This document shows positions 11,636 to 48,277 of a DNA stretch of 64,000 nt, in pieces. A program made the position numbers and the translations under genes. Location of the stretch: assembly GCF_029227855.1 (NCBI RefSeq), contig NZ_CP074356.1; one strand, written 5' to 3'. Each line of letters starts with the position of its first letter. The first letter of the stretch is position 1. Below the pieces are notes generated by a model. The model searched no databases and was not told where the DNA came from. It saw only the letters and a program-made list of their open reading frames with translations. The stretch comes from Escherichia coli. Lineage in GTDB: Bacteria > Pseudomonadota > Gammaproteobacteria > Enterobacterales > Enterobacteriaceae.

Positions 11636-11669
11636 GTTGGCAAAACTGATCATTGCCCTTAAAACGACA

Positions 11670-16442: not shown

Positions 16443-16901
16443 TTACTTACGGCCCGTAAACGGGCTGCCCGGATAGGGAATCGATAACTGCTCTCCCATT
16501 TTATCCTCTTCAAGCTGGTGCTTTATGTAATCCTGTATCTTCGCCGTGTTCTTACCCACTGTATCGACGTAGTACCCTCTGCACCAGAACTCCCTGTTCC
16601 TGTATTTGAATTTCAAATCACCAAACTGCTCGTAAAGCATCAGACTGCTTTTCCCTTTCAGATATCCCATAAACCCGGATACGCTCATTTTGGGCGGGAT
16701 CTCCACAAGCATATGGATATGATCTGCACAGCATTCAGCTTCCAGAATCCGTACGCTTTTCCACTCACACAGCTTTCTCAAAATACTGCCTATTGCTCTA
16801 CGCTTCTCTCTGTAGAACACCTGTCTTCGGTATTTTGGCGCAAAAACTATGTGATATTTACAGTTCCATCGGGTGTGCGCTAAGCTCTTTTCGTTCCCCA
16901 T
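16443..16901 (-). CDS. tnpA: IS200 transposase TnpA (HUH Y1 transposase)
   Basis: Product MGNEKSLAHTRWNCKYHIVFAPKYRRQVFY...HIHMLVEIPPKMSVS...; HxH motif and catalytic Tyr context. Confidence 0.9.
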   Translation of the reverse strand: MGNEKSLAHTRWNCKYHIVFAPKYRRQVFYREKRRAIGSILRKLCEWKSVRILEAECCADHIHMLVEIPPKMSVSGFMGYLKGKSSLMLYEQFGDLKFKYRNREFWCRGYYVDTVGKNTAKIQDYIKHQLEEDKMGEQLSIPYPGSPFTGRK

Positions 16902-25560: not shown

Positions 25561-26998
25561 GCCATTTCAGCGCCCGTTTTCGCTGGCAACCCGCCTGACC
25601 TTTTTTATCAGCCTGGCCACCATCGCGGCGTTTTTCGCCTTTGCCTGGATCATGATTCACTCGGTAAAAGTGCATTTTGCTGAGCAGGATATTAATGATT
25701 TAAAAGAGATTAGCGCCACACTCAAGCGCGTTCTTAATCATCCCGAAGAGACACAAGCCCGACGCTTAATGACGCTGGAAGATATCGTCAGTGGTTATTC
25801 CAATGTGTTGATTTCCCTGGCAGATAGCCAGGGTAAAACGGTGTATCACTCCCCCGGTGCGCCGGATATCCGCGAGTTTACGCGTGACGCCATACCCGAT
25901 AAAGACACGCGGGGCGGCGAGGTGTATCTCCTTTCCGGCCCGACGATTATGATGCCGGGCCACGGTCACGGGCATATGGAACACAGCAACTGGCGGATGA
26001 TTAACTTGCCGGTTGGCCCGTTGGTGGACGGCAAACCGATTTATACGCTCTACATCGCGCTTTCGATCGATTTTCATCTTCATTACATAAATGATTTGAT
26101 GAATAAACTTATTATGACCGCATCGATCATCAGCATCCTGATCGTCTTTATCGTGCTGTTGGCGGTACATAAAGGTCACGCACCGATCCGCAGCGTCAGC
26201 CGTCAAATCCAGAACATTACCTCGAAAGATCTCGACGTTCGCCTTGACCCGCAGACCGTGCCGATTGAGCTGGAACAGCTGGTACTGTCGTTCAACCATA
26301 TGATCGAGCGTATTGAGGATGTCTTTACTCGCCAGTCCAATTTCTCAGCGGATATCGCTCACGAAATTCGTACACCAATTACGAATCTCATCACGCAAAC
26401 GGAAATCGCCCTCAGCCAGTCGCGCAGCCAGAAGGAGCTGGAAGATGTGCTCTACTCTAATCTCGAAGAGCTGACGCGAATGGCGAAAATGGTCAGCGAT
26501 ATGCTGTTTCTCGCCCAGGCCGATAACAACCAGTTAATCCCCGAAAAGAAAATGCTCAACCTGGCGGATGAAGTCGGCAAAGTGTTCGATTTTTTCGAGG
26601 CATTAGCGGAAGATCGCGGCGTGGAGTTGCGGTTTGTTGGTGACGAGTGTCAGGTTGCGGGCGATCCGCTGATGCTGCGTCGGGCGTTAAGCAACCTGCT
26701 TTCGAACGCCCTGCGTTATACGCCGCCCGGAGAGGCAATTGTTGTGCGCTGCCAGACGGTCGATCACCAGGTGCAAGTTACCGTCGAAAACCCCGGTACG
26801 CCCATTGCGCCCGAGCACTTACCGCGATTGTTTGACCGTTTCTATCGCGTTGACCCTTCCCGCCAGCGAAAAGGTGAAGGTAGCGGTATTGGGCTGGCGA
26901 TAGTGAAATCGATTGTTGTCGCGCATAAAGGCACGGTTGCGGTAACGTCAGATGCGCGGGGGACAAGGTTTGTGATTATGCTGCCGGAGAGAGAGTGA
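25550..26998 (+). CDS. cusS: Copper-sensing histidine kinase CusS
   Basis: Product [23 protein letters not shown]... with H-box [13 protein letters not shown]; overlaps the cusR stop by 11 bp. Confidence 0.94.
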
Positions 26999-27734
26999 TT
27001 ATTAAGTTCAAATTCAGGGCGTGGTGCATCACCTCCTGGTATTGTTGATCAACAAATTAGAGAAAAACTTATTAAACATATGAAATATCGAAGGCTTTTA
27101 TTTTTCAAAGTTTCACGAGATGTTTGTATATGAAACTTAGTTAAATCTGTGTTTCTTCCAATTGTAGATCACAATGCCCTTTCTAAATTTTCATCGTTAT
27201 AAACAAGCCATCTATCATATAAAGCAATGAATAATTTAATCGCGATTAATCATCATTAATTGTTATATTATTCACTCAATCTATTTATCAAGTGAATTTG
27301 ATAAATTCCTAATTTAAAATATCCACTATTGAGCCAGTATTTAACAACGTTAAGATGTGCAATGTGCAGATCATGTTATCAGGGTGGAGCGGTAGCATAT
27401 ATTTCTTATGCAATCATTCATTTTAATAATGTTAATTGGATTATTTATTGCTGTGAATAAAAATATATTATGAATATTGGTTTAACTTTGCGTTTTTGTT
27501 ACTCGTTGTGATATGCGTACCTGTCCTGAATAACGCCAAGAAACAAGAGGTTGAGCTTGTGATTATTTTTTTGACTGAACAGACACCCGTTTCTGTAAAG
27601 TAATATTTAAACAAAATTCTCACATAACCATAGCATTTTCTGTTCCTTCCCTAATAACGTCTGAAGTCGTCCCGCTTATCACATTATCCGCAGTTGTACG
27701 GTACGGATCATTATTCATTTTACTGGAGGTTGCT

Positions 27735-29636
27735 ATGTCAACCGGATTACGTTTCACACTGGAAGTGGACGGCCTGCCGCCGGATGCTTTTGCGGTGGTT
27801 TCCTTTCATCTGAACCAGTCACTCTCTTCGCTCTTTTCCCTCGATCTCTCCCTGGTCAGCCAGCAGTTTCTCTCCCTTGAATTTGCGCAGGTGCTGGACA
27901 AAATGGCCTACCTGACGATATGGCAGGGCGATGAAGTACAGCGCCGGGTGAAAGGCGTGGTGACCTGGTTTGAACTCGGGGAGAACGACAAAAACCAGAT
28001 GCTGTACAGCATGAAGGTGCACCCGCCGCTGTGGCGTGCCGGTCTGCGCCAGAACTTCCGTATCTTCCAGAACGAGGACATCAAAAGCATCCTCGGCACG
28101 ATGTTGCAGGAAAACGGGGTGACCGAATGGAGTCCGCTGTTCAGCGAGCCGCATCCTTCCCGTGAGTTTTGTGTCCAGTACGGTGAGACTGATTACGATT
28201 TCCTGTGCCGGATGGCGGCGGAGGAAGGCATCTTCTTTTATGAGGAGCATGCTTACAAAAGTACCGACCAGAGCCTGGTGCTGTGCGACACAGTCCGCCA
28301 TCTGCCCGAATCTTTTGAAATCCCATGGAACCCGAACACCCGTACCGAGGTGAGCACCCTCTGCATCAGCCAGTTCCGCTACAGCGCACAAATCCGCCCT
28401 TCTTCCGTGGTGACCAAAGACTACACCTTTAAACGCCCCGGCTGGGCCGGACGTTTTGAACAGGAAGGCCAGCACCAGGACTACCAGCGCACGCAGTATG
28501 AAGTGTATGACTACCCCGGACGTTTCAAGGGTGCCCACGGGCAGAACTTTGCCCGCTGGCAGATGGACGGCTGGCGAAACAATGCAGAAACCGCGCGGGG
28601 AATGAGTCGCTCGCCGGAGATATGGCCGGGACGACGAATTGTGCTGACGGGGCATCCGCAGGCGAACCTGAACCGGGAATGGCAGGTGGTGGCAAGTGAA
28701 CTGCACGGCGAACAGCCACAGGCGGTGCCAGGACGGCAGGGAGCGGGGACGGCGCTGGAGAACCATTTTGCGGTGATCCCGGCAGACAGAACATGGCGAC
28801 CACAGCCGTTGCTGAAACCGCTGGTCGACGGCCCGCAGAGCGCTGTCGTGACAGGACCGGCAGGCGAGGAAATCTTCTGCGACGAACATGGTCGCGTGCG
28901 GGTGAAGTTCAACTGGGACCGCTATAACCCGTCAAACCAGGACAGTTCGTGCTGGATCCGTGTGGCACAGGCGTGGGCAGGCACCGGTTTTGGCCACCTG
29001 GCGATACCGCGTGTGGGTCAGGAGGTGATTGTAGACTTCCTCAACGGCGATCCGGACCAGCCGATCATTATGGGGCGCACCTACCACCAGGAAAACCGCA
29101 CCCCCGGCAGCCTGCCGGGAACAAAGACGCAGATGACCATCCGCTCCAAAACGTACATGGGCAGCGGATTTAATGAGCTGAAGTTTGATGATGCGACAGG
29201 GAGAGAACAGGTCTACATCCACGCGCAGAAGAACATGGATACCGAAGTGCTCAACGACCGTACCACCACCGTAAAACACGATCACCACGAAACCGTAAAA
29301 AATGACCAGACGGTCACGATCCAGGAAGGTAACCGCCTTCTTACGGTGGAAAAAGGCCACAAGATCACCGGAGTACTGAAAGGGTCTTTATCTGAGGATG
29401 TCTTTCAGGACAGAGGCACGATTGCCGGTTCGGTGCATGTTGACGCTGTAAACAATGGTGGCGAAGGCGACGGTATACAGGCTTATACGGCGATTAAGGA
29501 AATTTTGCTGGCCGTGGAGGAAAGCAAAATTGCGCTGACGCCGGATGGCATTCAGCTACAGGTCGGGGAATCGACGGTAATCAGGCTGTCGAAGGATGGC
29601 ATCACCATCGTGGGCGGTTCTGTTTTCATCAACTGA
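27735..29636 (+). CDS. vgrG: Type VI secretion spike protein VgrG (Rhs-element Vgr protein)
   Basis: 633-aa ORF MSTGLRFTLEVDGLPPDAFAVVSFHLNQSLSSLFSLDLSL...; gp27/gp5-like organisation, immediately upstream of Eag/PAAR-Rhs genes. Confidence 0.88.
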   Translation: MSTGLRFTLEVDGLPPDAFAVVSFHLNQSLSSLFSLDLSLVSQQFLSLEFAQVLDKMAYLTIWQGDEVQRRVKGVVTWFELGENDKNQMLYSMKVHPPLWRAGLRQNFRIFQNEDIKSILGTMLQENGVTEWSPLFSEPHPSREFCVQYGETDYDFLCRMAAEEGIFFYEEHAYKSTDQSLVLCDTVRHLPESFEIPWNPNTRTEVSTLCISQFRYSAQIRPSSVVTKDYTFKRPGWAGRFEQEGQHQDYQRTQYEVYDYPGRFKGAHGQNFARWQMDGWRNNAETARGMSRSPEIWPGRRIVLTGHPQANLNREWQVVASELHGEQPQAVPGRQGAGTALENHFAVIPADRTWRPQPLLKPLVDGPQSAVVTGPAGEEIFCDEHGRVRVKFNWDRYNPSNQDSSCWIRVAQAWAGTGFGHLAIPRVGQEVIVDFLNGDPDQPIIMGRTYHQENRTPGSLPGTKTQMTIRSKTYMGSGFNELKFDDATGREQVYIHAQKNMDTEVLNDRTTTVKHDHHETVKNDQTVTIQEGNRLLTVEKGHKITGVLKGSLSEDVFQDRGTIAGSVHVDAVNNGGEGDGIQAYTAIKEILLAVEESKIALTPDGIQLQVGESTVIRLSKDGITIVGGSVFIN

Positions 29637-29663
29637 TTCACTCAGATTATCAGGGAGTATTTT

Positions 29664-30125
29664 ATGCAGTTCACTTTTAATGAAGGCCACATTCAACTGC
29701 CGTCTCAATGGCAGGATCAGTCAATGCAGGTCCTGGTGTCCACAGATAACAGTGGCATCAACCTGGTCATTACCCGCGAAGCCGTTCCACAGGGAACCCT
29801 GACACCAGAGCTGTACCAGGAAACGCTGGCGCTGTACCAGGGCAAACTTGATGGGTACACCGAACATGCCTGCCGGGAAATCACTCTGGCAGAGGCCCCG
29901 GCCTGGCTGCTGGATTATTCCTGGAACGGTCCGGAAGATGAGGGGAATCAGGGGCGGATTAGCCAGATAGCCGTATTCCAGCGGCGTGGAGATACGCTGC
30001 TGACCTTCACTTTCAGCACCTCCTTATCCCTGAAGAACAGTCAAAAGACGATGCTGCTGGAGGTGATAAAGAGCTTCACCCCGTTGCCACCGGAGAATGA
30101 CATCCAAAAGGACCAGCCGCGCTGA
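29664..30125 (+). CDS. DUF1795/Eag-family T6SS effector chaperone (EagR-like)
   Basis: 153-aa ORF placed between vgrG and a prePAAR-Rhs gene, the canonical position of Eag chaperones; assignment from context and overall similarity, no HMM run. Confidence 0.7.
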   Translation: MQFTFNEGHIQLPSQWQDQSMQVLVSTDNSGINLVITREAVPQGTLTPELYQETLALYQGKLDGYTEHACREITLAEAPAWLLDYSWNGPEDEGNQGRISQIAVFQRRGDTLLTFTFSTSLSLKNSQKTMLLEVIKSFTPLPPENDIQKDQPR

Positions 30126-30144
30126 CATAAACGAGGGATAACAC

Positions 30145-33100
30145 ATGAGTGAAGGACCAGGCGGGCCACAGGGAGCGACCGCAGGCGGTACGCTGGCAAT
30201 GCGAATGCTGTCACAGCAGGCGATGGTCGCCAGCCAGATGAAACGGGCAGCCAACGACAAAGCCATTGCACAGATGCTGGCATCAAAAAAGTCCGGCCCC
30301 CCCGCCGCCAGGCTGGGCGATGAAATTCAGCACAAGAGTTTTTTGGGGGCGCTGGCAGGGGCCGTGCTGGGGGCGATAGTGACCATCGCAGAAGGTTGCC
30401 TGATTATGGCCGCCTGTGCCACCGGCCCTTATGCGCTGGTTCTGGTGCCTGCGCTGATGTATGCCAGCTATAAGGCGAGTGATTATGTGGAGGAGAAACA
30501 GAACCAGCTTGAATCATGGATAAACAGCTTTTGTGACACGGACGGCGCCATCAATACCGGTTCTGAAAATGTAAACATTAACGGAAAGCCCGCTGCCAGG
30601 GCCGCCGTCACCCTTCCCCCTCCTCCCCCACCTGGAGCAATACCTGAAATCCCACAGGGGGAACCCTCATGGGGTGATATTGCCACTGACCTGCTTGAAT
30701 CGGCAGCGGAAAAAGCAGTACCACTGGCGAAGGCCTGGGGGAACGCTGTTATCACCCTGACGGACAGCAATGCCGGTTTTATGGATCGCGTCAGCGCCGG
30801 CGCATCGCTTCTGTTTCCCGCCGGTCCGGTATTAATGGAGTTTGCCACCATGGTGGGCGGGCGTGGCGAAATCAAAAAAGATGTGGATTTCCCGGAAGCC
30901 GGTGAGGACACGGCGCTCTGCGACAAGGAGAACAAACCACCGAGGATAGCCCAGGGCAGCAGCAACGTCTTTATCAACAATCAGCCCGCCGCGCGCAAGG
31001 GCGACAAACTGGAGTGCAGCGCGGCAATCGTGGAAGGTTCGCCGGACGTCTTTATTGGCGGTGAACAGGTGACCTATCTGGATATCCAGCCAGAGTTCCC
31101 GCCGTGGCAGAGAATGATCCTGGGGGGAATAACGATAGCCAGCTATCTTCTGCCGCCAGCGGGACTGCTGGGAAAACTGAAGAATCTGGCGAGACTCGGC
31201 AAACTGGGGAACCTGCTGGGGAAAAGCGGGAAGCTGCTGGGGGCAAAGCTCGGCGCGTTGCTGGGAAAAACAGATAAGTCGTTAAAAAGTATTGCCAATA
31301 AAGTCATCAGATGGGTAACAGATCCTGTCGATCCGGTAACCGGCGCGTACTGCGACGAACGTACCGACTTTACGCTGGGCCAGACCCTCCCCCTCTCCTT
31401 CACCCGTTTCCACAGTTCTGTACTGCCGCTGCATGGCCTGACCGGCGTGGGCTGGAGCGACTCCTGGAGCGAATACGCCTGGGTGCGTGAACAGGGAAAC
31501 CGGGTGGATATCATCAGCCAGGGAGCCACGCTGAACTTCGCCTTCGACGGTGACAGTGATACGGCGGTTAACCCGTATCACGCCCAGTACATTCTGCGCC
31601 GCCGCGATGATTATCTGGAGCTGTTCGACAGGGATGCACTGAGCAGCCGCTTCTTTTATGACGCCTTTCCGGGAATGCGTCTGCGCCACCCGGTGACTGA
31701 CGATACCAGCGATGACCGCCTGGCACACAGCCCCAATGACCGGATGTACATGCTGGGCGGGATGAGCGACACCGCCAGCAACCGCATCACGTTTGAGCGC
31801 GACAGCCAGTACCGGATCACAGGTGTCAGTCACACCGACGGGATCCGGCTTAAACTGACGTACCACGCCAGCGGCTACCTGAAAGCCATTCACCGCACGG
31901 ATAACGGCATACAGACGCTGGCGACCTACGAACAGGATGCGCGGGGGCGGCTGACAGAAGCGGATGCGCGGCTGGACTACCACCTGTTTTATGAGTACGA
32001 CGCTGCGGACCGGATCATCCGCTGGTCCGATAACGACCAGACGTGGAGCCGTTTCACCTACGATGAACAGGGCCGGTGCGTGAATGTCACCGGGGCGGAG
32101 GGCTATTACAACGCCACGCTGGACTATGGTGACGGCTGCACCACCGTGACGGACGGCAAGGGCATTCACCGTTATTACTATGATCCTGACGGCAATATTC
32201 TGCGGGAAGCAGCGCCGGACGGCAGCACCACCACGTATGAATGGGATGAATTCCATCACCTGCTGGCCCGTCACTCCCCTGCCGGGCGGGTGGAGAAATT
32301 TGAATACAACGCCGCACACGGTCAGTTAAGCCGTTACACGGCGGCAGACGGCGCGGAGTGGCAGTACCGCTATGATGAGCGCGGCCTGCTCAGCAACATC
32401 ACCGACCCTGCCGGGCAGACGTGGACACAGCAGTGTGATGAACGCGGCCTGCCGGTAAGTCTGGTGTCGCCACAGGGCGAAGAGACCCGGCTGGCATACA
32501 CCGCTCAGGGGCTGCTGTCGGGAATATTCCGCCAGGATGAACGGCGTCTGGGCATAGAGTACGACCACCACAACCGGCCGGAAACACTCACCGACGTGAT
32601 GGGCCGTGAACACCACACCGAATACAGCGGTCACGACCTGCCGGTGAAGATGCGCGGCCCCGGCGGTCAGTCAGTGCGGTTGCAGTGGCAGCAGCACCAT
32701 AAACTGAGTGGCCTTGAGCGCACTGGCACCGGCGCGGAAGGGTTCAGCTATGACCGCCACGGCAACCTGCTGGCCTGGACGGACGGCAATGGTGTTGTCT
32801 GGACAATGGAGTACGGCCCGTTCGATTTGCCGGTGGCGCGAACGGACGGTGAAGGCCACCGCTGGCAGTACCGCTATGATAAAGACACGCTGCAACTGAC
32901 AGAAGTCATTAACCCGCAGGGTGAGTCATATCTTTATGTTCTGGATAACTGCGGCCGGGTGACGGAAGAGCATGACTGGGGCGGCGTGGTCTGGCGTTAC
33001 CGCTATGACGCCGATGGCCTGTGTACCGCCAGGGTCAACGGCCTGGAGGAAACCATCCTCTACAGCCGGGACGACGCAGGCCGCCTGGCAGAAGTCATCA

Positions 33101-34974
33101 CGCCGGAAGGCAAAACGCAGTATGCGTATGACAAATCCGGCAGGCTGACGGGTATCTTCAGCCCGGACGGCACATCACAGCGCACCGGCTATGACGAACG
33201 CGGGCGGGTGAATGTCACCACTCAGGGCCGACGGGCCATTGAATACCACTACCCCGATGAACACACCGTCATCCGCTGTATCCTGCCACCGGAAGATGAA
33301 CGCGACAGACACCCCGGTGAATCCCTGCTGAAAACCACGTACCGCTACAACGCAGCCGGAGAACTGGCAGAGGTCATCCTGCCGGAGGATGAGACGCTGA
33401 CGTTCAGCCGTGATGAGGCAGGACGTGAAGTGCTCCGGCACAGTAACCGGGGTTTTGCCTGTGAGCAGGGCTGGAATGCAGCCGGTCAGCTTACCAGCCA
33501 GCGCGCCGGACTTTTCCCGGCAGAAGCCACATGGGGCGGGCTGCTCCCCTCACTGGTACGGGAGTACCGTTACGACAGCGCGGGCAATGTGTCGGCTGTC
33601 ACCAGCCGGGAAGATTACGGACGGGAAACTCGCCGGGAGTACCGGCTGGACCGGAACGGCCAGGTCACGGCGGTGACAGCCTCAGGCACCGGGCTGGGCT
33701 ATGGCGAAGGCGATGAGTCCTATGGCTATGACAGTTGTGGCTACCTGAAGGCGCAGTCTGCGGGCAGGCACCGGATAAGTGAAGAGACTGAGCGGTATGC
33801 CGGAGGCCACCGGCTGAAACAGGCCGGAAACACGCAGTATGACTATGACGCCGCAGGCCGGATGGTCAGCCGCACCAGACACCGTAACGGCTATCGCCCG
33901 GAAACAGAGCGGTTCCGGTGGGACAGCCGGGACCAGCTGACCGGGTATTGCAGCGCACAGGGTGAACAGTGGGAATACCGCCACGACGCCAGCGGCAGAC
34001 GGACGGAAAAACGCTGCGACCGGAAGAAAATCCGCTTCACGTACCTGTGGGACGGCGACAGTATTGCGGAAATCCGGGAATACCGCGATGATAAACTGTA
34101 CAGCGTAAGGCACCTGGTGTTTAACGGCTTTGAGCTGATAAGCCAGCAGTTTAGCCGGGTACGGCAGCCGCACCCGTCCGTGGCCCCGCAGTGGGTGACG
34201 CGGACGAATCATGCGGTGAGCGATCTGACGGGCCGTCCGCTGATGCTCTTTAACAGTGAAGGTAAAACCGTCTGGCGACCGGGACAGACCAGCCTGTGGG
34301 GGCTGGCACTCAGCCTGCCCGCGGACACCGGCTACCCGGACCCGCGCGGGGAACTGGACGCGGAAGCCGACCCCGGCCTGCTGTATGCAGGACAGTGGCA
34401 GGATGCGGAATCCGGGCTGTGCTATAACCGGTTCCGGTATTACGAGCCGGAAACAGGGATGTACCTGGTGAGTGATCCGCTGGGGTTGCTGGGGGGTGAG
34501 CAGACTTACCGGTATGTGCCGAATCCGTGTGGGTATGTTGATCCTTTGGGATTAGCAACATGTCCCATAATCAGACAACGGGTGCTGGCTAACCTTGAAG
34601 CCAGTCGGGCAGCAAGGGCTGCATCTAATTTTGGTAAGAAAAATATCTATGATTTTATCAAGGCAACTCAATCTGCTATCCCTGGCACCTCTATCCCAAA
34701 ATCTTTTGAGATTATAACTGCTAATGGTACTTTCTGGGTACACCCAAATGCTACAAAACATATGGCTGAATATTTGACTCGGAACGGTCTCTCACATTCA
34801 ACTTCTGTAGAGAGCCAAATAATGTTAACAAGTTTTCACGAAGCTGTAAGTTTGGCTAGTGCTCAAGGTATAAAGTATGAAGAAATGATGAATGTTGGCG
34901 GCTGGGAACTAGTATTTAGTCAAGCTAAATCTGACTCGGCTTTATCAGTTATTAAACATGCTCTTTATAAATGA
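30145..34974 (+). CDS. prePAAR/PAAR-domain Rhs polymorphic toxin (T6SS effector) with variable C-terminal toxin domain
   Basis: 1609 aa; prePAAR motif AARLGDEIQH near the N-terminus with hydrophobic helices; PAAR-like segment (GDKLECSAAIVEGSPDVFIGGE); many YD/RHS repeats; PxxxxDPxGL core-end motif (NPCGYVDPLGL) followed by about 150 aa of divergent C-terminus. Confidence 0.9.
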   Translation: MSEGPGGPQGATAGGTLAMRMLSQQAMVASQMKRAANDKAIAQMLASKKSGPPAARLGDEIQHKSFLGALAGAVLGAIVTIAEGCLIMAACATGPYALVLVPALMYASYKASDYVEEKQNQLESWINSFCDTDGAINTGSENVNINGKPAARAAVTLPPPPPPGAIPEIPQGEPSWGDIATDLLESAAEKAVPLAKAWGNAVITLTDSNAGFMDRVSAGASLLFPAGPVLMEFATMVGGRGEIKKDVDFPEAGEDTALCDKENKPPRIAQGSSNVFINNQPAARKGDKLECSAAIVEGSPDVFIGGEQVTYLDIQPEFPPWQRMILGGITIASYLLPPAGLLGKLKNLARLGKLGNLLGKSGKLLGAKLGALLGKTDKSLKSIANKVIRWVTDPVDPVTGAYCDERTDFTLGQTLPLSFTRFHSSVLPLHGLTGVGWSDSWSEYAWVREQGNRVDIISQGATLNFAFDGDSDTAVNPYHAQYILRRRDDYLELFDRDALSSRFFYDAFPGMRLRHPVTDDTSDDRLAHSPNDRMYMLGGMSDTASNRITFERDSQYRITGVSHTDGIRLKLTYHASGYLKAIHRTDNGIQTLATYEQDARGRLTEADARLDYHLFYEYDAADRIIRWSDNDQTWSRFTYDEQGRCVNVTGAEGYYNATLDYGDGCTTVTDGKGIHRYYYDPDGNILREAAPDGSTTTYEWDEFHHLLARHSPAGRVEKFEYNAAHGQLSRYTAADGAEWQYRYDERGLLSNITDPAGQTWTQQCDERGLPVSLVSPQGEETRLAYTAQGLLSGIFRQDERRLGIEYDHHNRPETLTDVMGREHHTEYSGHDLPVKMRGPGGQSVRLQWQQHHKLSGLERTGTGAEGFSYDRHGNLLAWTDGNGVVWTMEYGPFDLPVARTDGEGHRWQYRYDKDTLQLTEVINPQGESYLYVLDNCGRVTEEHDWGGVVWRYRYDADGLCTARVNGLEETILYSRDDAGRLAEVITPEGKTQYAYDKSGRLTGIFSPDGTSQRTGYDERGRVNVTTQGRRAIEYHYPDEHTVIRCILPPEDERDRHPGESLLKTTYRYNAAGELAEVILPEDETLTFSRDEAGREVLRHSNRGFACEQGWNAAGQLTSQRAGLFPAEATWGGLLPSLVREYRYDSAGNVSAVTSREDYGRETRREYRLDRNGQVTAVTASGTGLGYGEGDESYGYDSCGYLKAQSAGRHRISEETERYAGGHRLKQAGNTQYDYDAAGRMVSRTRHRNGYRPETERFRWDSRDQLTGYCSAQGEQWEYRHDASGRRTEKRCDRKKIRFTYLWDGDSIAEIREYRDDKLYSVRHLVFNGFELISQQFSRVRQPHPSVAPQWVTRTNHAVSDLTGRPLMLFNSEGKTVWRPGQTSLWGLALSLPADTGYPDPRGELDAEADPGLLYAGQWQDAESGLCYNRFRYYEPETGMYLVSDPLGLLGGEQTYRYVPNPCGYVDPLGLATCPIIRQRVLANLEASRAARAASNFGKKNIYDFIKATQSAIPGTSIPKSFEIITANGTFWVHPNATKHMAEYLTRNGLSHSTSVESQIMLTSFHEAVSLASAQGIKYEEMMNVGGWELVFSQAKSDSALSVIKHALYK

Positions 34975-35504
34975 CGATTATGCTTACATTAGAAAATGAA
35001 ACAAACTACAAAGATGTTGTTGTTAATATAGATGAATTTGTACCTTTTGATATAACTTTTGGAAAGGGGAGCGAACAGTGTTTGTACTGGAGAGGCGGCA
35101 ATGGTAAAAGTTCTTTGGTTGAAGTTGGGTTAAATATGTACAGCGGAGAAGTAAGTAACATCACACTAGCAAATATCGATTCAGGTGAAATTAACATTAC
35201 AGATGAGATGTTAGCCAACAACCTTCCTGAAATACAAGGGTCTGTTATATTTCAGACAAGCGAGTGGCTTAATAAAGACATTTCCGAATACTCAAACAGA
35301 TTTATTGATGATTTTGATTGCAATATCAAGTTAATAATTGGTAGTAATTACATTAAATTATTATTTAAAAAAGCAACAAATCCCATTTGTTATATCATTA
35401 ATAGGAATATAAGATTTGGTTTTTCTTTGAGTAGGGAACTTTCGACATTGGAAATATTAGACCTCAATCAAGAAAAATTAGATATTCTAAAGTTATTTAA
35501 ATAG
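34971..35504 (+). CDS. Putative cognate immunity protein for the Rhs C-terminal toxin
   Basis: 177-aa ORF whose ATG overlaps the rhs stop (ATGA); markedly AT-rich; position typical of rhsI genes. Confidence 0.7.
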   Translation: MTIMLTLENETNYKDVVVNIDEFVPFDITFGKGSEQCLYWRGGNGKSSLVEVGLNMYSGEVSNITLANIDSGEINITDEMLANNLPEIQGSVIFQTSEWLNKDISEYSNRFIDDFDCNIKLIIGSNYIKLLFKKATNPICYIINRNIRFGFSLSRELSTLEILDLNQEKLDILKLFK

Positions 35505-35983
35505 TTTTAGTGTTTGAAACTTACCGAGAGATGATAGCTATGAATGAATACAAAAACATCCATCTTGGAGGAAACAATGGAATGTTAATCCATTAAAAAA
35601 CATACTTCAATATCTTTAGTGAAGAAAGAGTTGTATGAAAGAAATATATCTTATGTGAGCGACATGATGCATGCTAATTATATTATTGGCCGGAAATTTT
35701 ATGATGATAGCAAAAAGGAGGGGTTATTTCTGTAAGAATGGATATACCCGCAGGGTTTGAACCAGACATTTATTTGTTGAAGTCTAAGATCCAAATGGAA
35801 GCATTTATATCCCTCAGATATTATGCGTTGACGGGTTGATAAAGATACTTTTAGAGGGTTAATAAATGGAGAACGTATAATAAATCTCTTAAACAAACTA
35901 TAACCTGTACTAATGAAAAAAATGGGAATAGATAAGTTAATAGCCTATTCTAAAAATGGTAAAGTGGTTTTACTTCCAAAATA

Positions 35984-36427
35984 ATGGAGTTTAGTATGAA
36001 AATCGAAGCTAATTCCCTTACTCATCCCTATGACTACAACGCCTCACTGAACAATTATTTACATTATTTTGAGAATTTCTCTCGTAATGACTGGAATAAA
36101 GATTCATGTGGAGGATATTTTACTTTTAGAGATGATGACAGAGAGTGTGTTTTGTTTTTTGTGAATTATGGTGATAATTTTTCATTGCGCTATGATTGTA
36201 CACAAAGTTCTGATGGAATAGTGTCATGCTGGTATAGTAACCATGAAGATGATAAAATGAATATCATCGTCGATGCTGATACAGAACAATTTATCCCTTT
36301 AGGTTCTTGCTTACCTCCTGATATTACTTTATCAGTAATAAAAGATTTTTTCAAAAATCCTTTAGAGAAATCAAAAAAAGTAAAATGGATGAATGCAGAT
36401 GACATTGACTGGTCATCTGTGTATTAA
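35984..36427 (+). CDS. Hypothetical protein, possible orphan immunity gene
   Basis: 147-aa ORF in AT-rich DNA downstream of the toxin/immunity pair; no recognisable motif. Confidence 0.4.
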   Translation: MEFSMKIEANSLTHPYDYNASLNNYLHYFENFSRNDWNKDSCGGYFTFRDDDRECVLFFVNYGDNFSLRYDCTQSSDGIVSCWYSNHEDDKMNIIVDADTEQFIPLGSCLPPDITLSVIKDFFKNPLEKSKKVKWMNADDIDWSSVY

Positions 36428-37318
36428 AGTTGGATTGGATAATTATCTGTTTCAAAAATCATTAAATTTAGAACCTATCTGTTCAACAGAGCTGCCTTGA
36501 ACAGCAGGTTCTTTTATGATGTCCAGGAGCGAATATGCCTGTGATGTCTGGCACTCAGCATCTGACTGACCTGGACTACTGATCCTACTCACACAGGGAG
36601 CTAGACCTGGAAGCAACCTACTGTAAGCAGTGCAGTAGCAGCCCACCTCACATCAGTCCTTGCAAGGTGTGGGCCTTTGTGATCTTGCTCTGTATTGCTG
36701 AGATCCTCAGGAAGGACTCGAAATTTAATCAGGAAGGCCGTTGCTAAAAATCAAAAAATAAATTCAAGAGCAATTTCTAAAACTTTTGAATCTACTGTAT
36801 CGGATGAGGTTTTCACTCCTTTCCAAAAGGTGAGTTTTCAAGCATTCAAGTTTCTGTTATGACCAAAACTTCACCATTTAACACTAATCCGAGTATTATG
36901 TTACCATGAAGAAAAAAGATATTAGATTTGCAATATCCATTAACTCCAACTCAAGTAAGATAGAATTAATGGAAAAATTAAAAACATAATCCCAGGGCTT
37001 ATTGAAATAACTCCCAGTGCATTAAGAGAAGAAAAAACATGGTAGTTATTGAAGATAATGATCTTTATGACTCTATAAAAGCAGAGGGAGTTGATGGATG
37101 GATGTATTATAAATTCATATTATCCATATTCCCATTAAAGGGAGTAGACACAACATTAGAATATCAACGGAAATTATCTTTTCTTTTCTTAAAGAAATTA
37201 AAAGATGCGGGTCTGTTAGGTGAACTTATATGCGAGGATGATTTTCATGACTGATGACCTCTACATATATCCTCAGTTCGTGGCTGGTATTACATGATCT
37301 GACAGGGAAAGATCGTAG

Positions 37319-37613
37319 CGAAATCAAAAAAGACGTGGATTTCCCGGAAGCCGGTGAAGACACGGCGCTCTGCGACAAGGAGACTAAACCGCCGAGGATA
37401 GCCCAGGGCAGCAGCAACGTTTTTATCAACAATCAGCCTGCCGCACGCCAGGGAGACAAACTGGAGTGCAGTGCGGCGATCGTGGAAGGTTCGCCGGACG
37501 TCTTTATTGGGGGTGAGCAGGTCACCTATCTGGATATCCAGCCGGAGTTCCCGCCGTGGCAGAGAATGATCCTGGGGGGAATAACGATAGCCAGCTATCT
37601 TCTGCCGCCAGCG
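37319..37613 (+). pseudogene. Duplicated fragment of the Rhs PAAR-domain region
   Basis: 295 bp nearly identical to 30867-31161 of the full-length rhs gene; encodes EIKKDVDFPEAGEDTALCDK...ITIASYLLPPA inside ORF 37254..37631; lacks the N-terminus and core. Confidence 0.85.
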
Positions 37614-37750
37614 CAGGGAAAGATCACGTAACGCTGCTTTTTTGTACTAAATAATTCGCACTAAATGTTCAATAATTGAGATATTCCTTATTACCTAAAT
37701 ACAGTTCCACCAAGATTACCTAAACCCAAATGAGGTAAAAGATAGTGGGT

Positions 37751-38112
37751 ATGAATAAAAATGAAATCCATTTCCCTATAGGATATGGTTGGTTGAATGA
37801 AAAAAAATTATTGGCACCAGTGAATTTAGCCAATTAGAACCATGGTTTTATCTAGATGAGAACAGGTGTTTTTTTGCGAATAAAAAATGGCCAAATGTCA
37901 TAGGTGAACAATTATTCGCTTTTGCTAAACGTCAAGATAATGATGAATTGGCTTGTTTCAAAATTAATGAATCTGGAGTCTGTGAGGGTGTTTATTTAAT
38001 TAATGGGTGGACTCCTAACGGGTTTGATATTATACAATTTTACCCTGATTTTTGGGAATGGGTACATTTGGTTATACAAGATGTCTCGGAGTGGATTGAT
38101 AATAAAGGATAA
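37751..38112 (+). pseudogene. Frameshifted small gene (immunity-protein-like) with an A8 tract at the frame switch
   Basis: ATG at 37751 reads 27 codons to a stop; a shifted frame from about 37813 continues for 99 codons to TAA at 38110-38112; the shift coincides with gaaaaaaaatt at 37798-37808. Confidence 0.45.
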
Positions 38113-38141
38113 TTTGAAACAAAAGTAAAAAACCGCCTTCA

Positions 38142-38840
38142 TTGAAGGTAACGTGGAGTGGTGGGCGGAGCAGCCTGCCCGCAGACACAGACTACCCGGA
38201 CCCGCGCGGGGAGCGGGACGCGGAAGCCGACCCCGGCCTGCTGTATGCAGGACAGTGGCAGGATGCGGAATCCGGACTGTGCTATAACCGGTTCCGGTAT
38301 TACGAGCCGGAAACCGGGATGTACCTGGTGAGTGATCCCCTGGGGTTGCTGGGGGGTGAGCAGACTTACCGGTATGTGCCTAATCCTAGTGGGTATGTTG
38401 ATCCTCTGGGATTAGCAACGTGTCCTATACTCAGACAGTGGGCGCTGACTAACCTTGAAGCCAGTCGGGCAGCAAGGGCTGCATCTAATTTTGGTAAGCC
38501 TCTGGTCCAGCGAAATAAAACGATTGGCGATAAAGTAAGGGATATGATTGCCAAAGAGAGGGGAACCACTCTAATTGAACAAAATTATAGAGTGACAGGA
38601 GGATTAAAGCGTATTGACGTTGTTGATGGAGTAACGGGTATAGAATCTAAAGTCGATCGAACAGGGTTAACAACCCGAGTACGGCAAGAGGTAGCGCGGG
38701 ATATTAAGATTTTGAGAAGTGAGCAACTTGATCAAATTGAATGGGTGTTTACAAGAAGTTCAACTACAGGGAAGATTGGGCCAACTAAACCACTTGAAGA
38801 TCTTTTAAATAAACATGGTATACCGATTATTTATCGATAA
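38142..38840 (+). CDS. Orphan Rhs C-terminal fragment: core end (DPxGL) plus alternative C-terminal toxin domain, candidate PD-(D/E)xK nuclease
   Basis: 38171-38498 nearly identical to 34311-34638 of the full rhs; the C-terminal domain diverges after ...AASNFGK; contains RIDVVDG...GIESK; the ORF begins at TTG and has no PAAR or core of its own. Confidence 0.7.
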   Translation: MKVTWSGGRSSLPADTDYPDPRGERDAEADPGLLYAGQWQDAESGLCYNRFRYYEPETGMYLVSDPLGLLGGEQTYRYVPNPSGYVDPLGLATCPILRQWALTNLEASRAARAASNFGKPLVQRNKTIGDKVRDMIAKERGTTLIEQNYRVTGGLKRIDVVDGVTGIESKVDRTGLTTRVRQEVARDIKILRSEQLDQIEWVFTRSSTTGKIGPTKPLEDLLNKHGIPIIYR

Positions 38841-38851
38841 GGAGTGATAGT

Positions 38852-39409
38852 GTGAAACTCAAACCGATTGGTGACTTTTTAAACAAAAATGGGTTTATAA
38901 AAAATGGTAACAATGATTTTTATAAAGTTCATGATAAGTTTGTAAATTGTATAAATTTTCAAAAAAAGAGTACAGGTGATATTTTTTTTATAAACACAGG
39001 TGTTCATCCTGTGTTCGAAAATTTTTGCAATGAACCACCGAAAAAAGAAATAGATTGTTACATCCGTAACCGTGTGTGTGATGGACTAAGTATATCTTTG
39101 CTGCATTCTTTTGAAGGTAGTGAGTTTGTTATCAGTGAGATAAAAAACAAAGCGTTTTGTTTTTTTGAATACTTTGATTCATTGAATAAAATATTCGATG
39201 CTATTCGTGTTGTAGATATTGAAGAGAGAAATATTTGCGATGAGCTAAGTGGTGTAAGCAGCGTAAGATTAGCTTTGATGTGTATGAACTACCAGTATGA
39301 GAAAAAAAAATTTAGCCTTGTTTCTGATTTTGCGAACTATGGTCTTGCTATATCTAGAGGCCCGGTACCGAAAAAAGCATTTAAGGATATGATAAAAATA
39401 ACAGAGTGA
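38852..39409 (+). CDS. Putative immunity protein for the orphan Rhs C-terminal toxin
   Basis: 185-aa AT-rich ORF with GTG start 11 bp after the orphan toxin stop and GGAG upstream. Confidence 0.6.
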   Translation: MKLKPIGDFLNKNGFIKNGNNDFYKVHDKFVNCINFQKKSTGDIFFINTGVHPVFENFCNEPPKKEIDCYIRNRVCDGLSISLLHSFEGSEFVISEIKNKAFCFFEYFDSLNKIFDAIRVVDIEERNICDELSGVSSVRLALMCMNYQYEKKKFSLVSDFANYGLAISRGPVPKKAFKDMIKITE

Positions 39410-39434
39410 TACCTAATCCGGTGTAATACTTGCT

Positions 39435-39646
39435 GCCTGTGTACCGCGAAGATTAACGGCCGGGAGGAAACTATTCTCTACAACCGGGACGCCACAGGCC
39501 GCCTGGCAGAAGTCATCACGCCGGAAGGCAAAACGCAGTATGCGTATGACAAATCCGGCAGGCTGACGGGTATCTTCAGCCCGGACGACACATCACAGCG
39601 CACCGGCTATGAAGAACGCGGGCGGGTGAATGTCACCACTCAGGGC
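39435..39646 (+). pseudogene. Internal Rhs core fragment
   Basis: About 210 bp at roughly 90% identity to 33018-33228 of the full-length rhs; truncated at both ends, abutting the ISAs1 left end. Confidence 0.8.
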
Positions 39647-40936
39647 AGGGAAAGATCATCCAAAGTACACTTTTTGTACTAAATAATTCGCATTTTATGT
39701 TTAAAAATGGAGATATTCCTCATTACCTAAAGCTGTTTTTTATTGCTTATACATGATCAAATACTCCTTACATAATTAAGGAGAACAAAATGGAACTTAA
39801 AAAATTGATGGAACATATTTCTATTATCCCCGATTACAGACAAGCCTGGAAAGTGGAACATAAATTATCGGATATTCTGCTGTTGACTATTTGTGCCGTT
39901 ATTTCGGGTGCAGAAGGCTGGGAAGATATAGAGGATTTTGGGGAAACACATCTCGATTTTTTGAAGCAATATGGTGATTTTGATAATGGTATTCCTGTTC
40001 ACGATACCATCGCCAGAGTTATATCCTGTATCAGTCCTTCAAAATTTCACGAGTGTTTTATTAACTGGATGCGAGATTGCCATACTTCAGATGATAAAGA
40101 CGTCATCGCAATTGATGGAAAAACACTCCGGCATTCTTATGACAAGAGTCGCCGCAAGGGAGCGATTCATGTCATTAGTGCGTTCTCAACAATGCACAGT
40201 CTGGTCATCGGACAGATCAGGACGGATGAGAAATCCAATGAAATTACAGCTATCCCTGAACTTCTTAACATGCTGGATATTAAAGGAAAAATCATCACAA
40301 CTGATGCGATGGGTTGCCAGAAAGATATTGCAGAGAAGATACAAAAACAGGGCGGTGATTATTTATTCGCTGTAAAAGGAAACCAGGGGCGGCTAAATAA
40401 AGCCTTCGAGGAAAAATTTCCGCTGAAAGAATTAAATAATCCAGAGCATGACAGTTACGCCATTAGTGAAAAGAGTCACGGCAGAGAAGAAATCCGTCTT
40501 CATATTGTTTGCGATGTCCCTGATGAACTTATTGATTTCACGTTTGAATGGAAAGGACTGAAGAAATTATGCGTGGCAGTCTCTTTTCGGTCAATAATAG
40601 CAGAACAAAAGAAAGAGCCAGAAATGACGGTCAGATATTATATCAGTTCTGCTGATTTAACCGCAGAGAAGTTCGCCACAGCAATCCGAAACCACTGGCG
40701 CGTGGAGAATAAGCTGCACTGGCGTCTGGACGTGGTAATGAATGAAGACGACTGCAAAATAAGAAGAGGAAACGCCGCAGAATTATTTTCAGGGATACGG
40801 CACATCGCTATTAATATTTTAACGAATGATAAGGTATTCAAGGCAGGGTTAAGACGTAAGATGCGAAAAGCAGCCATGGACAGAAACTATCTCGCGTCAG
40901 TCCTTGCGGGGAGCGGGCTTTCGTAATCTTGCCCTG
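39646..40936 (+). mobile_element. ISAs1-family insertion sequence (H-repeat element), about 1.29 kb
   Basis: Imperfect terminal inverted repeats CAGGGAAAGATCA (39646-39658) and TAATCTTGCCCTG (40924-40936); single transposase ORF; inserted in rhs-derived sequence. Confidence 0.75.
39790..40926 (+). CDS. ISAs1-family transposase (H-repeat-associated protein, YhhI/YdcC-like)
   Basis: 378-aa [55 protein letters not shown]...; the stop codon lies inside the right inverted repeat. Confidence 0.88.
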
Positions 40937-41123
40937 CGTTAACCGCCCCTCCTTGACACCACGCTTTTGTCTACATTCTACACAAACGGCAACTTTTATA
41001 ACCAGTGTAAAAATAACGTGCCGCAATAGTCATACCTATTAATGGTAAAAAGCTGTCACAATTCATAAAAAACCTTAATATACGCCACCCTAAACATAAC
41101 CAGCGTTAATGTAAGGTTTTTGT

Positions 41124-43361
41124 GTGGACTGGCTTCTTGATGTTTTTGCTACCTGGCTCTACGGCTTAAAAGTAATCGCGATAACGTTAGCGGTCATCAT
41201 GTTCATCAGCGGGCTGGACGATTTTTTTATTGATGTCGTCTACTGGGTACGCCGCATTAAACGCAAGTTGAGTGTTTATCGCCGCTACCCGCGAATGAGT
41301 TACCGCGAACTGTATAAACCAGATGAAAAACCGTTAGCGATTATGGTTCCGGCGTGGAATGAAACGGGCGTCATCGGCAATATGGCCGAGCTGGCGGCGA
41401 CCACGCTCGACTATGAAAACTATCATATCTTTGTTGGCACCTACCCCAACGACCCCGATACACAGCGTGATGTTGACGAAGTGTGCGCTCGCTTCCCGAA
41501 CGTGCATAAGGTAGTCTGCGCGCGTCCTGGCCCCACCAGCAAAGCCGACTGCCTGAACAACGTGCTGGACGCCATCACCCAGTTTGAGCGTAGCGCCAAT
41601 TTCGCTTTTGCTGGTTTTATTCTGCATGACGCCGAAGACGTAATTTCACCGATGGAATTGCGTCTGTTCAACTATCTGGTCGAGCGTAAAGATCTGATTC
41701 AGATCCCGGTGTATCCGTTCGAACGCGAATGGACGCACTTCACCAGCATGACTTACATTGATGAGTTTTCAGAACTGCATGGCAAAGATGTTCCGGTGCG
41801 TGAAGCCCTCGCCGGACAAGTGCCCAGCGCAGGCGTCGGTACCTGTTTCAGCCGCCGCGCCGTGACCGCACTGTTAGCTGACGGTGACGGTATTGCTTTC
41901 GACGTGCAGAGTCTTACTGAAGATTACGACATTGGTTTCCGCCTGAAAGAAAAAGGTATGACGGAAATTTTTGTCCGTTTTCCGGTGGTGGACGAAGCCA
42001 AAGAACGCGAGCAGCGTAAATTTTTACAGCACGCGCGGACGTCAAACATGATCTGCGTGCGCGAATATTTCCCTGATACCTTTTCGACTGCGGTTCGACA
42101 AAAATCTCGCTGGATCATCGGCATTGTTTTCCAGGGCTTTAAAACCCACAAATGGACCTCCAGCCTGACGCTGAACTACTTTCTCTGGCGCGACCGCAAA
42201 GGGGCAATCAGTAACTTTGTCAGCTTTCTCGCGATGCTGGTGATGATCCAGCTTCTGCTGTTACTGGCGTATGAAAGTTTGTGGCCCGATGCCTGGCATT
42301 TCCTTTCTATTTTCAGCGGCAGCGCATGGTTAATGACCCTGCTGTGGCTAAACTTTGGTTTGATGGTTAACCGCATCGTGCAGCGGGTGATTTTTGTCAC
42401 TGGCTACTACGGTCTGACGCAGGGGCTGCTATCTGTCCTGCGTCTTTTCTGGGGCAACCTGATTAACTTCATGGCCAACTGGCGCGCGTTAAAACAGGTA
42501 CTTCAACACGGCGATCCACGTCGTGTCGCGTGGGATAAAACAACGCATGACTTCCCCAGCGTGACTGGCGATACCCGCTCGTTGCGCCCGTTAGGCCAAA
42601 TTCTGCTGGAAAATCAGGTCATCACTGAAGAACAACTCGATACAGCACTGCGTAATCGCGTCGAAGGTCTACGCCTGGGCGGTTCAATGCTGATGCAGGG
42701 GCTGATTAGCGCCGAACAGCTGGCACAGGCGCTGGCAGAGCAAAACGGCGTGGCGTGGGAATCCATCGACGCCTGGCAGATCCCGTCCTCGCTGATTGCC
42801 GAAATGCCGGCCTCCGTGGCGCTGCATTATGCAGTGCTGCCGCTGCGTCTGGAAAATGATGAGTTAATTGTCGGCAGTGAAGATGGTATTGACCCGGTTT
42901 CGCTGGCGGCCCTGACGCGTAAAGTCGGACGCAAAGTGCGTTACGTCATTGTTCTGCGGGGACAAATTGTCACGGGGTTACGCCACTGGTATGCGCGCCG
43001 ACGCGGTCACGATCCGCGGGCAATGTTGTACAATGCGGTTCAGCATCAGTGGCTCACGGAACAGCAGGCCGGTGAAATCTGGCGGCAATATGTGCCGCAT
43101 CAGTTCCTGTTCGCCGAAATACTGACCACGCTCGGTCATATTAATCGTTCAGCAATTAACGTGTTGTTATTGCGCCATGAACGCAGTTCTCTGCCGCTCG
43201 GCAAGTTTTTGGTCACCGAAGGCGTTATCAGCCAGGAAACGTTGGATCGCGTCCTGACAATTCAACGCGAATTACAAGTTTCGATGCAATCACTATTACT
43301 CAAAGCAGGTTTAAATACAGAACAGGTTGCGCAACTGGAGTCCGAAAATGAAGGAGAATAA
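41124..43361 (+). CDS. nfrB: NfrB, phage N4 adsorption protein B (family-2 glycosyltransferase with C-terminal c-di-GMP-binding domain)
   Basis: 745-aa product MDWLLDVFATWLYGLKVIAITLAVIMF...; GTG start. Confidence 0.93.
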   Translation: MDWLLDVFATWLYGLKVIAITLAVIMFISGLDDFFIDVVYWVRRIKRKLSVYRRYPRMSYRELYKPDEKPLAIMVPAWNETGVIGNMAELAATTLDYENYHIFVGTYPNDPDTQRDVDEVCARFPNVHKVVCARPGPTSKADCLNNVLDAITQFERSANFAFAGFILHDAEDVISPMELRLFNYLVERKDLIQIPVYPFEREWTHFTSMTYIDEFSELHGKDVPVREALAGQVPSAGVGTCFSRRAVTALLADGDGIAFDVQSLTEDYDIGFRLKEKGMTEIFVRFPVVDEAKEREQRKFLQHARTSNMICVREYFPDTFSTAVRQKSRWIIGIVFQGFKTHKWTSSLTLNYFLWRDRKGAISNFVSFLAMLVMIQLLLLLAYESLWPDAWHFLSIFSGSAWLMTLLWLNFGLMVNRIVQRVIFVTGYYGLTQGLLSVLRLFWGNLINFMANWRALKQVLQHGDPRRVAWDKTTHDFPSVTGDTRSLRPLGQILLENQVITEEQLDTALRNRVEGLRLGGSMLMQGLISAEQLAQALAEQNGVAWESIDAWQIPSSLIAEMPASVALHYAVLPLRLENDELIVGSEDGIDPVSLAALTRKVGRKVRYVIVLRGQIVTGLRHWYARRRGHDPRAMLYNAVQHQWLTEQQAGEIWRQYVPHQFLFAEILTTLGHINRSAINVLLLRHERSSLPLGKFLVTEGVISQETLDRVLTIQRELQVSMQSLLLKAGLNTEQVAQLESENEGE

Positions 43362-48200: not shown

Positions 48201-48277
48201 TGGCGCGCCCTGCAGGATTCGAACCTGCGGCCCACGACTTAGAAGGTCGTTGCTCTATCCAACTGAGCTAAGGGCGC
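48201..48277 (-). tRNA. argU: tRNA-Arg (anticodon UCU), argU
   Basis: Reverse complement reads GCGCCCTTAGCTCAGTTGGATAGAGCAACGACCTTCTAAGTCGTGGGCCGCAGGTTCGAATCCTGCAGGGCGCGCCA; cloverleaf with TCT anticodon and CCA end. Confidence 0.95.

Follow-up and report, generated by a model that had tools for sequence, protein, structure and literature searches.

We analysed a stretch of 64,000 nucleotides of Escherichia coli DNA (contig NZ_CP074356.1 of assembly GCF_029227855.1; hereafter the window), in which an island separates cusS from nfrB. The genes of this island make it very probable that it is a chromosomal type VI secretion system (T6SS) effector island, built in the order vgrG, eagR, prePAAR/PAAR-Rhs and immunity gene, and that its tail keeps a record of the displacement of Rhs C-terminal toxins. 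The island is of an already catalogued T6SS Rhs type, lies at a known site and is very common in the species. We refer to the full-length Rhs protein, its toxin-bearing tip and the adjoining immunity gene as main, and to a second toxin/immunity cassette farther downstream, fused in frame to a short piece of Rhs core, as the orphan.

The record of displacement is best read by comparing strains. The orphan and main rhs sequences are linked by a repeat of 328 bp with 94% identity. In strain PapRG-06-3, a Rhs protein of 1611 amino acids (aa) encoded at cusS-nfrB ends in the PD-(D/E)xK domain that is orphaned in the window; a DUF4304 gene follows it, and the rhs gene is preceded by the same vgrG and a gene for an identical Eag protein. 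A chimeric probe that joins the main core to the orphan tip is contiguous in four genomes, PapRG-06-3 and three others, where this toxin with DUF4304 tips a full-length Rhs at the cusS-nfrB locus. In MS1665 the roles are reversed, with a MafB19-like deaminase as the main Rhs tip and the tRNA nuclease (tRNase) tip of our main Rhs present as a downstream orphan fragment, 97% identical over 346 aa and followed by the same immunity protein, WP_001370340.1. The orphan cassette of the window has its 3' core in common with the main gene and forms the main tip in other strains; it is a displaced main tip. The same cassettes are caught as main in one strain and as orphan in another.

All four main open reading frames (ORFs) at the head of the island are intact, including the 4.8-kb rhs gene. 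VgrG scores 626 bits against TIGR03361, for which the cut-off is 186, and an Eag (DUF1795/DcrB) gene is positioned between vgrG and rhs. The Rhs protein carries a prePAAR motif, AARLGDEIQH, at aa 54-63 (pattern AARxxDxxxH), followed by a hydrophobic stretch at aa 64-107 (over aa 63-107 the mean hydropathy exceeds 1.4); signs of a second transmembrane region are weak. A PAAR motif lies at aa 281-284, the protein matches the PAAR protein 4JIW at E = 1e-5, and its alignment with the Rhs effector Tre23, which begins at aa 254, spans the PAAR region. The Rhs shell is recognized by TIGR01643 in 10 stretches and by TIGR03696 at aa 1408-1470, and it ends at a PxxxxDPxGL boundary, PCGYVDPLGL, at aa 1461-1470. 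A first-pass annotation made from the DNA letters had listed these components and those of the tail; all were found, each no more than a few tens of bases from the position given, and the hidden Markov model (HMM) searches that it had proposed for VgrG, DUF1795, PAAR and RHS find the corresponding domains, PAAR below the NCBIfam cut-off.

Pfam scans gave no match in the main toxin's C-terminal region or in the main immunity protein. Through a PDB sequence search both could be placed: Rhs residues 1485-1609 match chain B of entry 7VMC ('tRNA nuclease CdiA') at E = 8e-41, with 61% identity over 124 aa and 66% over a 109-aa core, and the product of the gene directly 3' of rhs matches chain C (CdiI) with 34% identity. 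The entry is the CdiA-CT/CdiI(EC869)/EF-Tu complex (Wang et al. 2022, NAR, PMC9071432), whose authors reported that the CdiA-CT(EC869) reaction is stimulated by EF-Tu, EF-Ts and GTP, that mutation of His216 or His281 reduces toxicity and that the last five residues are also required. In the numbering of that paper, which we follow (the 7VMC chain numbering is that of the paper plus 21), the main toxin keeps His216 (in TKHMAEY), His281 and the C-terminal HALYK tail (KHALYK), and the EF-Tu domain II contacts Tyr220, Leu221, Gln235, Met237 and Tyr284 are identical at 5/5 positions. The conserved histidines, tail and EF-Tu contacts therefore place the main toxin in the CdiA-CT(EC869) family. Homology to 7VMC_B sets in near chain residue 177-182, which leaves the N-terminal part of the CdiA-CT region outside what the two proteins share; to judge from its sequence, the main toxin is a member of the CdiA-CT(EC869) tRNase family in its toxin domain, not in its delivery system. 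We infer that it acts as an EF-Tu-assisted tRNA nuclease. The first-pass annotation had been unable to assign either toxin of the island to a characterized family; for the main toxin this falls with the 7VMC match, and it stands for the family of the orphan, though the latter can be assigned to the PD-(D/E)xK superfamily.

Several smaller observations concern the main toxin and its surroundings. The homology between the main and orphan genes continues for 28 codons beyond DPLGL (ATCPI[IL]RQ...LEASRAARAASNFGK; 34555-34638 and 38415-38498). Besides the window, PapRG-06-3, MS1665 (where it contains an extra RAA repeat) and a Salmonella fragment have this linker ahead of the tRNase and PD-(D/E)xK tips; deaminase and GF43-type tips lack it. 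RefSeq labels WP_001370340.1, the main immunity protein, 'RNA-binding protein' or 'hypothetical protein' depending on the genome, and the first label looks erroneous. Rhs2/SciX of S. Typhimurium, considered as a carrier of the same toxin, was ruled out: its toxin, a BECR nuclease of the Ntox47 type, is a relative of PDB 5T86 and not of EC869.

The orphan toxin domain comprises 113 residues, containing RIDVVD...IESK, and it has no Pfam match and no PDB sequence match, whether searched as a single sequence or as a profile. An exhaustive search of 1.84 billion representative proteins (E <= 0.001) returned a family of at least 549 clusters at 50% identity, in which the domain always sits at the extreme C-terminus of carriers that reach 3630 aa and include several Rhs/YD-repeat proteins. 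Carriers were judged by this search and by genome comparison; a word-indexed protein search returned short fragments only, for both toxins, and missed even the parental Rhs. Across an alignment of 35 diverse members the E...D...ExK metal site is preserved, with D44, E53 and K55 invariant and E31 conserved in at least 90%. AlphaFold2, run on the family alignment, gave a model with pLDDT 94.8 and pTM 0.86 and with secondary structure in the order H-E-E-E-H-E-H-E, which contains the alpha-beta-beta-beta-alpha-beta core fold of the PD-(D/E)xK superfamily. In structure the model comes closest to NucS, to restriction and nicking endonucleases and to the EC869 CdiA-CT of 4G6U; TseT (Tox-REase-5) matches too. 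The predicted structure clearly puts the orphan toxin in the PD-(D/E)xK nuclease superfamily, in a family that has no Pfam model. Neither the window protein nor the 35 family members matched Pfam Tox-REase-2, -3, -5, -7 or -9, apart from one faint REase hint, and we know of no Pfam models for Tox-REase-1, -4, -6, -8 and -10. The motif strings of Zhang et al. 2012 are compatible with Tox-REase-1, -4 or -6 and too loose to assign the family. The orphan toxin would be a metal-dependent nuclease, usable only after recombining into the main rhs. In current annotation it is called a pseudogene or a hypothetical protein.

The DUF4304 protein encoded after the orphan toxin had no match in the PDB sequence search, and a literature search found no paper on DUF4304. 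A DUF4304 gene also comes after that of an Rhs-repeat protein, 2731 aa long, with a toxin domain 55% identical to the orphan's. The genes downstream of two other members of the family are unrelated to DUF4304, and the pairing is therefore lineage-specific, not universal. Our proposal that the orphan represents a large, formally undescribed family of PD-(D/E)xK polymorphic toxins, with DUF4304 as one cognate immunity family and with a substrate (DNA or specific RNA) that is possibly new, is a tentative one, which we put forward as doubtful. If true, DUF4304 would gain its first functional assignment.

The K-12 genome gives the limits of the island. In MG1655 nfrB adjoins cusS, with a spacer of 149 bp, and direct alignment shows that K-12 homology has its last base at 26973, within the final cusS codons, and restarts at 40983. 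The added DNA therefore spans 26974-40982, an insert of approximately 14.0 kb that displaces about 27 bp and bears out the first-pass placement of an island between these two genes; the bounds then given, 26999-40936, mark the stop codon of cusS and the point at which ISEc1 ends. With the left junction inside the last cusS codons, CusS has an altered C-terminus. With the island it reads ...IMLPERE, against ...TRFVITLPA in K-12, and is two residues longer (26974-26998); this rewritten end is common to all sampled island-bearing genomes. An Rfam scan of 26000-42000 matched no RNA family. The island is bordered by ordinary core genes: fep/ent, cusCFBA and cusRS lie to one side of it, nfrBA, ybcH, envY, tRNA-Arg and sfm to the other.

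Jackson et al. 2009 (BMC Genomics 10:584) listed nfrB-cusS among the conserved Rhs loci of E. coli, as locus 4. Of 5426 complete E. coli genomes, 2326 contain an intact match to a 301-bp probe of the empty K-12 junction and 2380 (approximately 44%) to an 821-bp probe of the occupied left junction (cusS end, leader and vgrG start); in the species about half of these sites are thus vacant and about half filled, which answers the occupancy question that the first-pass annotation had raised. Region 26000-42000 of the window is 100% identical to that of E. coli JNEC-KY178 (NZ_AP045174.1), a human clinical isolate from Japan, and is matched by about 120 further complete genomes at 98.8-99.4%. The main toxin/immunity DNA was found in 135 genomes and the orphan toxin/immunity DNA in 114.

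A machine that could deliver the effector, for which the first-pass annotation had suggested looking, is encoded in the 100%-identical genome. NZ_AP045174.1 carries a complete T6SS cluster at aspV-yafT (4,008,633-4,031,194, between yafT/tRNA-Asp and yafV), comprising tssA, B, C, E, F, G, H, J, K and M, a tssL-type IcmH/DotU gene, tagH, vasI, a VasL-domain gene, two hcp genes and its own vgrG-rhs pair, all annotated without pseudogenes. The VgrG of the cluster and that of the island are 93% identical over aa 1-529 and unrelated over the C-terminal approximately 100 aa, a pattern that fits a single machine with two putative spikes that differ in the end that binds cargo. No literature landmarks were found by which the aspV cluster could be classed as T6SS1 or T6SS2. 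Elsewhere in the source genome (around 3.94-3.99 Mb) there is a nearly complete Flag-2 lateral flagella cluster with a frameshifted flhB. At 3938942-3942149 of NZ_AP045174.1, overlapping genes for an 'RNA-directed DNA polymerase' and a carbon-nitrogen hydrolase lie beside an integrase remnant and tRNA-Thr and may represent a reverse-transcriptase defence island.

Taken as a functioning system, the island would work as follows. By analogy with their families, the Eag chaperone would shield the N-terminal transmembrane region of Rhs, and the PAAR domain would seat Rhs on the island's own VgrG spike. The T6SS at aspV-yafT would fire this VgrG-Rhs spike, and the Rhs shell, as in related effectors, would free the C-terminal toxin, self-cleaved after PCGYVDPLGL, into a neighbouring cell. 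In the cytoplasm of that cell the toxin would most likely bind EF-Tu domain II and cut the acceptor stem of particular tRNAs, halting translation, while the CdiI-like protein encoded downstream would, as its family suggests, guard the producer cell. Each new toxin/immunity cassette would recombine into the 3' end of rhs and shift its predecessor downstream. Lacking both a PAAR domain and an Rhs shell, the orphan toxin is undeliverable in its present form; it could act as a reserve, recombining with the main rhs through the 328-bp homology, and orphan immunity genes that are kept could protect against relatives still firing those toxins.

Several points weigh against this account. Expression, secretion and killing by the island are predicted from its genes, and its putative pairing with the aspV T6SS from VgrG similarity. 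The PAAR stretch reaches 42.5 bits against NF033420 (E = 5e-11), for which the cut-off is 124, and covers model positions 53-94 only. When the 760-bp leader of vgrG, which has 28% GC, was scanned for promoters and terminators, nothing rose above shuffled sequence and promoter-like sites were no more numerous than there, so the operon may be silenced in many conditions. In the main toxin two arginines of the tRNA face are changed, Arg263 to Gly and Arg271 to Ala followed by Lys, and its tRNA choice or activity may therefore differ. The leader, the decay of much of the island and the undecided class of the T6SS that serves the island VgrG would suit a silent relic, whose intact genes are unexpressed or undeliverable and of which only the immunity genes matter. 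We consider this quite improbable, since four main ORFs, a 4.8-kb gene among them, are intact, the arrangement is retained at 98.8-100% identity in about 120 genomes, and the T6SS cluster is free of annotated pseudogenes and shares a 93%-identical VgrG core. The changed arginines bear on a narrower alternative, in which the main toxin has the EC869 fold and another action, on different tRNAs, on other RNA or independently of EF-Tu/EF-Ts. In CdiA-CT(EC869), R271A clearly reduces toxicity and R263A attenuates it slightly, and BECR CdiA toxins related to EC869 vary in their tRNA target (PMC9071432); moreover, the toxins share just 61-66% identity and the immunity proteins just 34%. Since the toxin keeps both presumed catalytic histidines, the HALYK tail and each of the five EF-Tu contacts, such a change of action appears unlikely, and we continue to favour an EF-Tu-assisted tRNase carried by a T6SS effector island.

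Two further alternatives concern the orphan toxin. Its fold by itself leaves the substrate unfixed and no close characterized relative was found, and CdiA-CT toxins of Burkholderia pseudomallei with the PD-(D/E)xK fold are tRNases, so that the orphan might be an RNase, for example a tRNase, in place of a DNase. The best structural matches point the other way, being DNA enzymes together with the CdiA-CT of 4G6U, which we take to be a DNase; TseT matches as well, and the classical E...D...ExK metal site is invariant (E31 as conserved as given above). An RNase is, on this evidence, the less likely of the two. A different question is whether the toxin still works in this strain. At 38655-38657 a Gly is replaced by Asp (ESKVGRT to ESKVDRT), two residues past the catalytic Lys; Gly occupies this position in at least 90% of the 35 family members and in the copies of FDAARGOS_448 and PapRG-06-3; the change to Asp is absent from these two strains and from the database copies, and it may inactivate an undeployed toxin. 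The ORF also starts with TTG and encodes no delivery domains. Against this, just one residue is substituted, and both the remainder of the domain and the homology for recombination are intact. That the orphan toxin is already dead here, with selection acting on the DUF4304 immunity gene only, has in our judgement a little short of an even chance.

Between the main operon and the orphan module lies what the first-pass annotation had called decayed AT-rich DNA. The decay is real, and the region is far from featureless: it holds the stubs of two Rhs toxins with their immunity genes, one intact and one frameshifted (Table 1). For the first stub, homology to MS1665 starts at window position 35903, and a Salmonella homologue of the 143-aa immunity protein, 70% identical, directly follows a PF14437 toxin. 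For the second, the 71-aa ORF at 37039-37254 is the C-terminal part of a GF43-type immunity gene. The main tip of GF43 contains HGSRARGD...SDIDIK, which resembles the G[SG]...DxD of minimal nucleotidyltransferases, and may be a toxin of nucleotidyltransferase type. The broken gene at 37752-38112 is, judged by its position, probably another orphan immunity gene. Beyond the orphan module, a piece of Rhs core is cut off by the start of ISEc1, which ydcC/yhhI-type ISEc1 copies match over query positions 1-1287.

Table 1. Features of the island in window coordinates; all lie on the + strand.
Feature	Position	Evidence or remark
Left junction and AT-rich leader of vgrG	26974-27734	GC 0.28 over 27000-27499; final cusS codons replaced
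vgrG, T6SS spike, 633 aa	27735-29636	TIGR03361 E = 4e-188
eagR-type chaperone gene (DcrB/DUF1795), 153 aa	29664-30125	PF08786 E = 1.7e-27; EagT6 (6XRF/1TU1) E = 1e-5
Main rhs, full-length prePAAR-TMD-PAAR-Rhs effector, 1609 aa	30145-34974	YD repeats, Rhs_assc_core, PAAR stretch
Rhs C-terminal toxin region, aa 1471-1609	34555-34974	28-aa linker 34555-34638; EC869-type BECR tRNA nuclease domain (by homology) 34639-34971
rhsI, cognate immunity gene, CdiI(EC869) homologue	34980-35504	7VMC_C E = 3e-18
Final 26 codons of MafB19-like deaminase Rhs toxin	35904-35981	tblastn, 85-88% identity (Salmonella PF14437 toxin; MS1665 Rhs C-terminal region)
Orphan immunity gene of deaminase module, intact, 143 aa	35996-36427	97% identical to gene directly after MS1665 Rhs-deaminase
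Frameshifted 3' stub of second Rhs toxin	36695-36906	tblastn with GF43 main Rhs C-terminal region
Frameshifted immunity gene of second stub	36906-37251	tblastn with GF43 116-aa immunity protein
PAAR-region fragment of second truncated rhs	37314-37613	94% DNA identity to 30862-31161; PAAR stretch E = 1e-8; RefSeq pseudogene
Broken copy of 120-aa gene	37752-38112	WP_001038643.1, intact at equivalent place in FDAARGOS_448; two alignment gaps; 54-aa ORF left
Orphan module, Rhs 3' core and PD-(D/E)xK-fold toxin (predicted), in frame	38142-38840	Core 38171-38498 94% identical to 34311-34638
DUF4304 immunity gene of orphan module, 185 aa	38852-39409	PF14137 E = 6.7e-10
Internal Rhs core fragment, approximately aa 958-1028 of main Rhs	39435-39646	94% DNA identity to 33017-33228
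ISEc1 ('H-repeat'), ISAs1 family	39650-40936	Transposase gene 39790-40926; RefSeq annotation
Right junction	40937-40982	K-12 homology from 40983

Outside the island, three further features of the window were noted. Between entD and ybdK (11267-11923) there is a tandem pair of hokE toxin genes, both overlapped by an ORF that is damaged. An IS200C copy is found between ybdG and pheP (16443-16901), and an identical transposase is annotated near the T6SS cluster of the source genome. At 48201-48277 a tRNA-Arg gene comes after envY, and fimZ with the sfm fimbrial genes adjoins it without an intervening prophage; in K-12, the cryptic prophage DLP12 ends just past envY.

The island has little general consequence, and it provides a clear example of Rhs tip swapping at one E. 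coli site. The first-pass annotation had seen in it the likeliest place for undescribed effector/immunity biology; both site and island type are already in the literature, and only the orphan is without an assigned family. The pairing of that family with DUF4304 is a modest lead, which would improve the annotation of many genomes.

Among known systems, the locus of Jackson et al. 2009, with its model of C-terminal displacement, is the same site, with displaced tips, core fragments and ISEc1 ('H-repeat'); there is no difference in kind, the window showing one particular set of tips. In the vgrGO1 islands of E. coli, vgrGO1 and eagR are required for Rhs-CT delivery (Ma et al. 2017, as related in PMC6730261 and bioRxiv 10.1101/2024.03.05.583533). 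As far as those summaries describe them, these vgrGO1-eagR-PAAR-Rhs-CT islands have the same gene order, a position outside the T6SS core and tandem rhs fragments with immunity genes, and differ from the window in the particular combination of toxins; an EC869-type tRNase tip on Rhs was found neither in the summaries nor in a literature search for EC869 and Rhs. Orphan rhs-CT/rhsI modules and the sharing of toxins between CdiA and Rhs have been described in general (Poole et al. 2011). With class I prePAAR Rhs effectors the main Rhs has in common the prePAAR motif, the hydrophobic N-terminal region and the Eag gene, and with Tre23 of Photorhabdus laumondii (7PQ5) it aligns across PAAR and Rhs shell over aa 254-1472 (E = 6e-259), whereas the C-terminal toxins of the two differ. 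The orphan toxin has the same predicted fold and E...D...ExK site as TseT (Tox-REase-5; 7DYM, 9OZ0), 4G6U and Tox-REase-1 to -10 of Zhang et al. 2012 and, like other PD-(D/E)xK polymorphic toxins, it forms the C-terminus of large secreted proteins and is followed by an immunity gene. A further comparison is with CdiA-CT/CdiI(EC869), whose nuclease domain and immunity protein are homologous to those of the main cassette, with histidines and EF-Tu contacts kept, but whose carrier is a CdiA filament of the type V secretion system (T5SS), whereas the carrier here is Rhs and the T6SS. An EC869-type, probably EF-Tu-dependent tRNase on a T6SS Rhs carrier would allow two secretion routes for one toxin to be compared.

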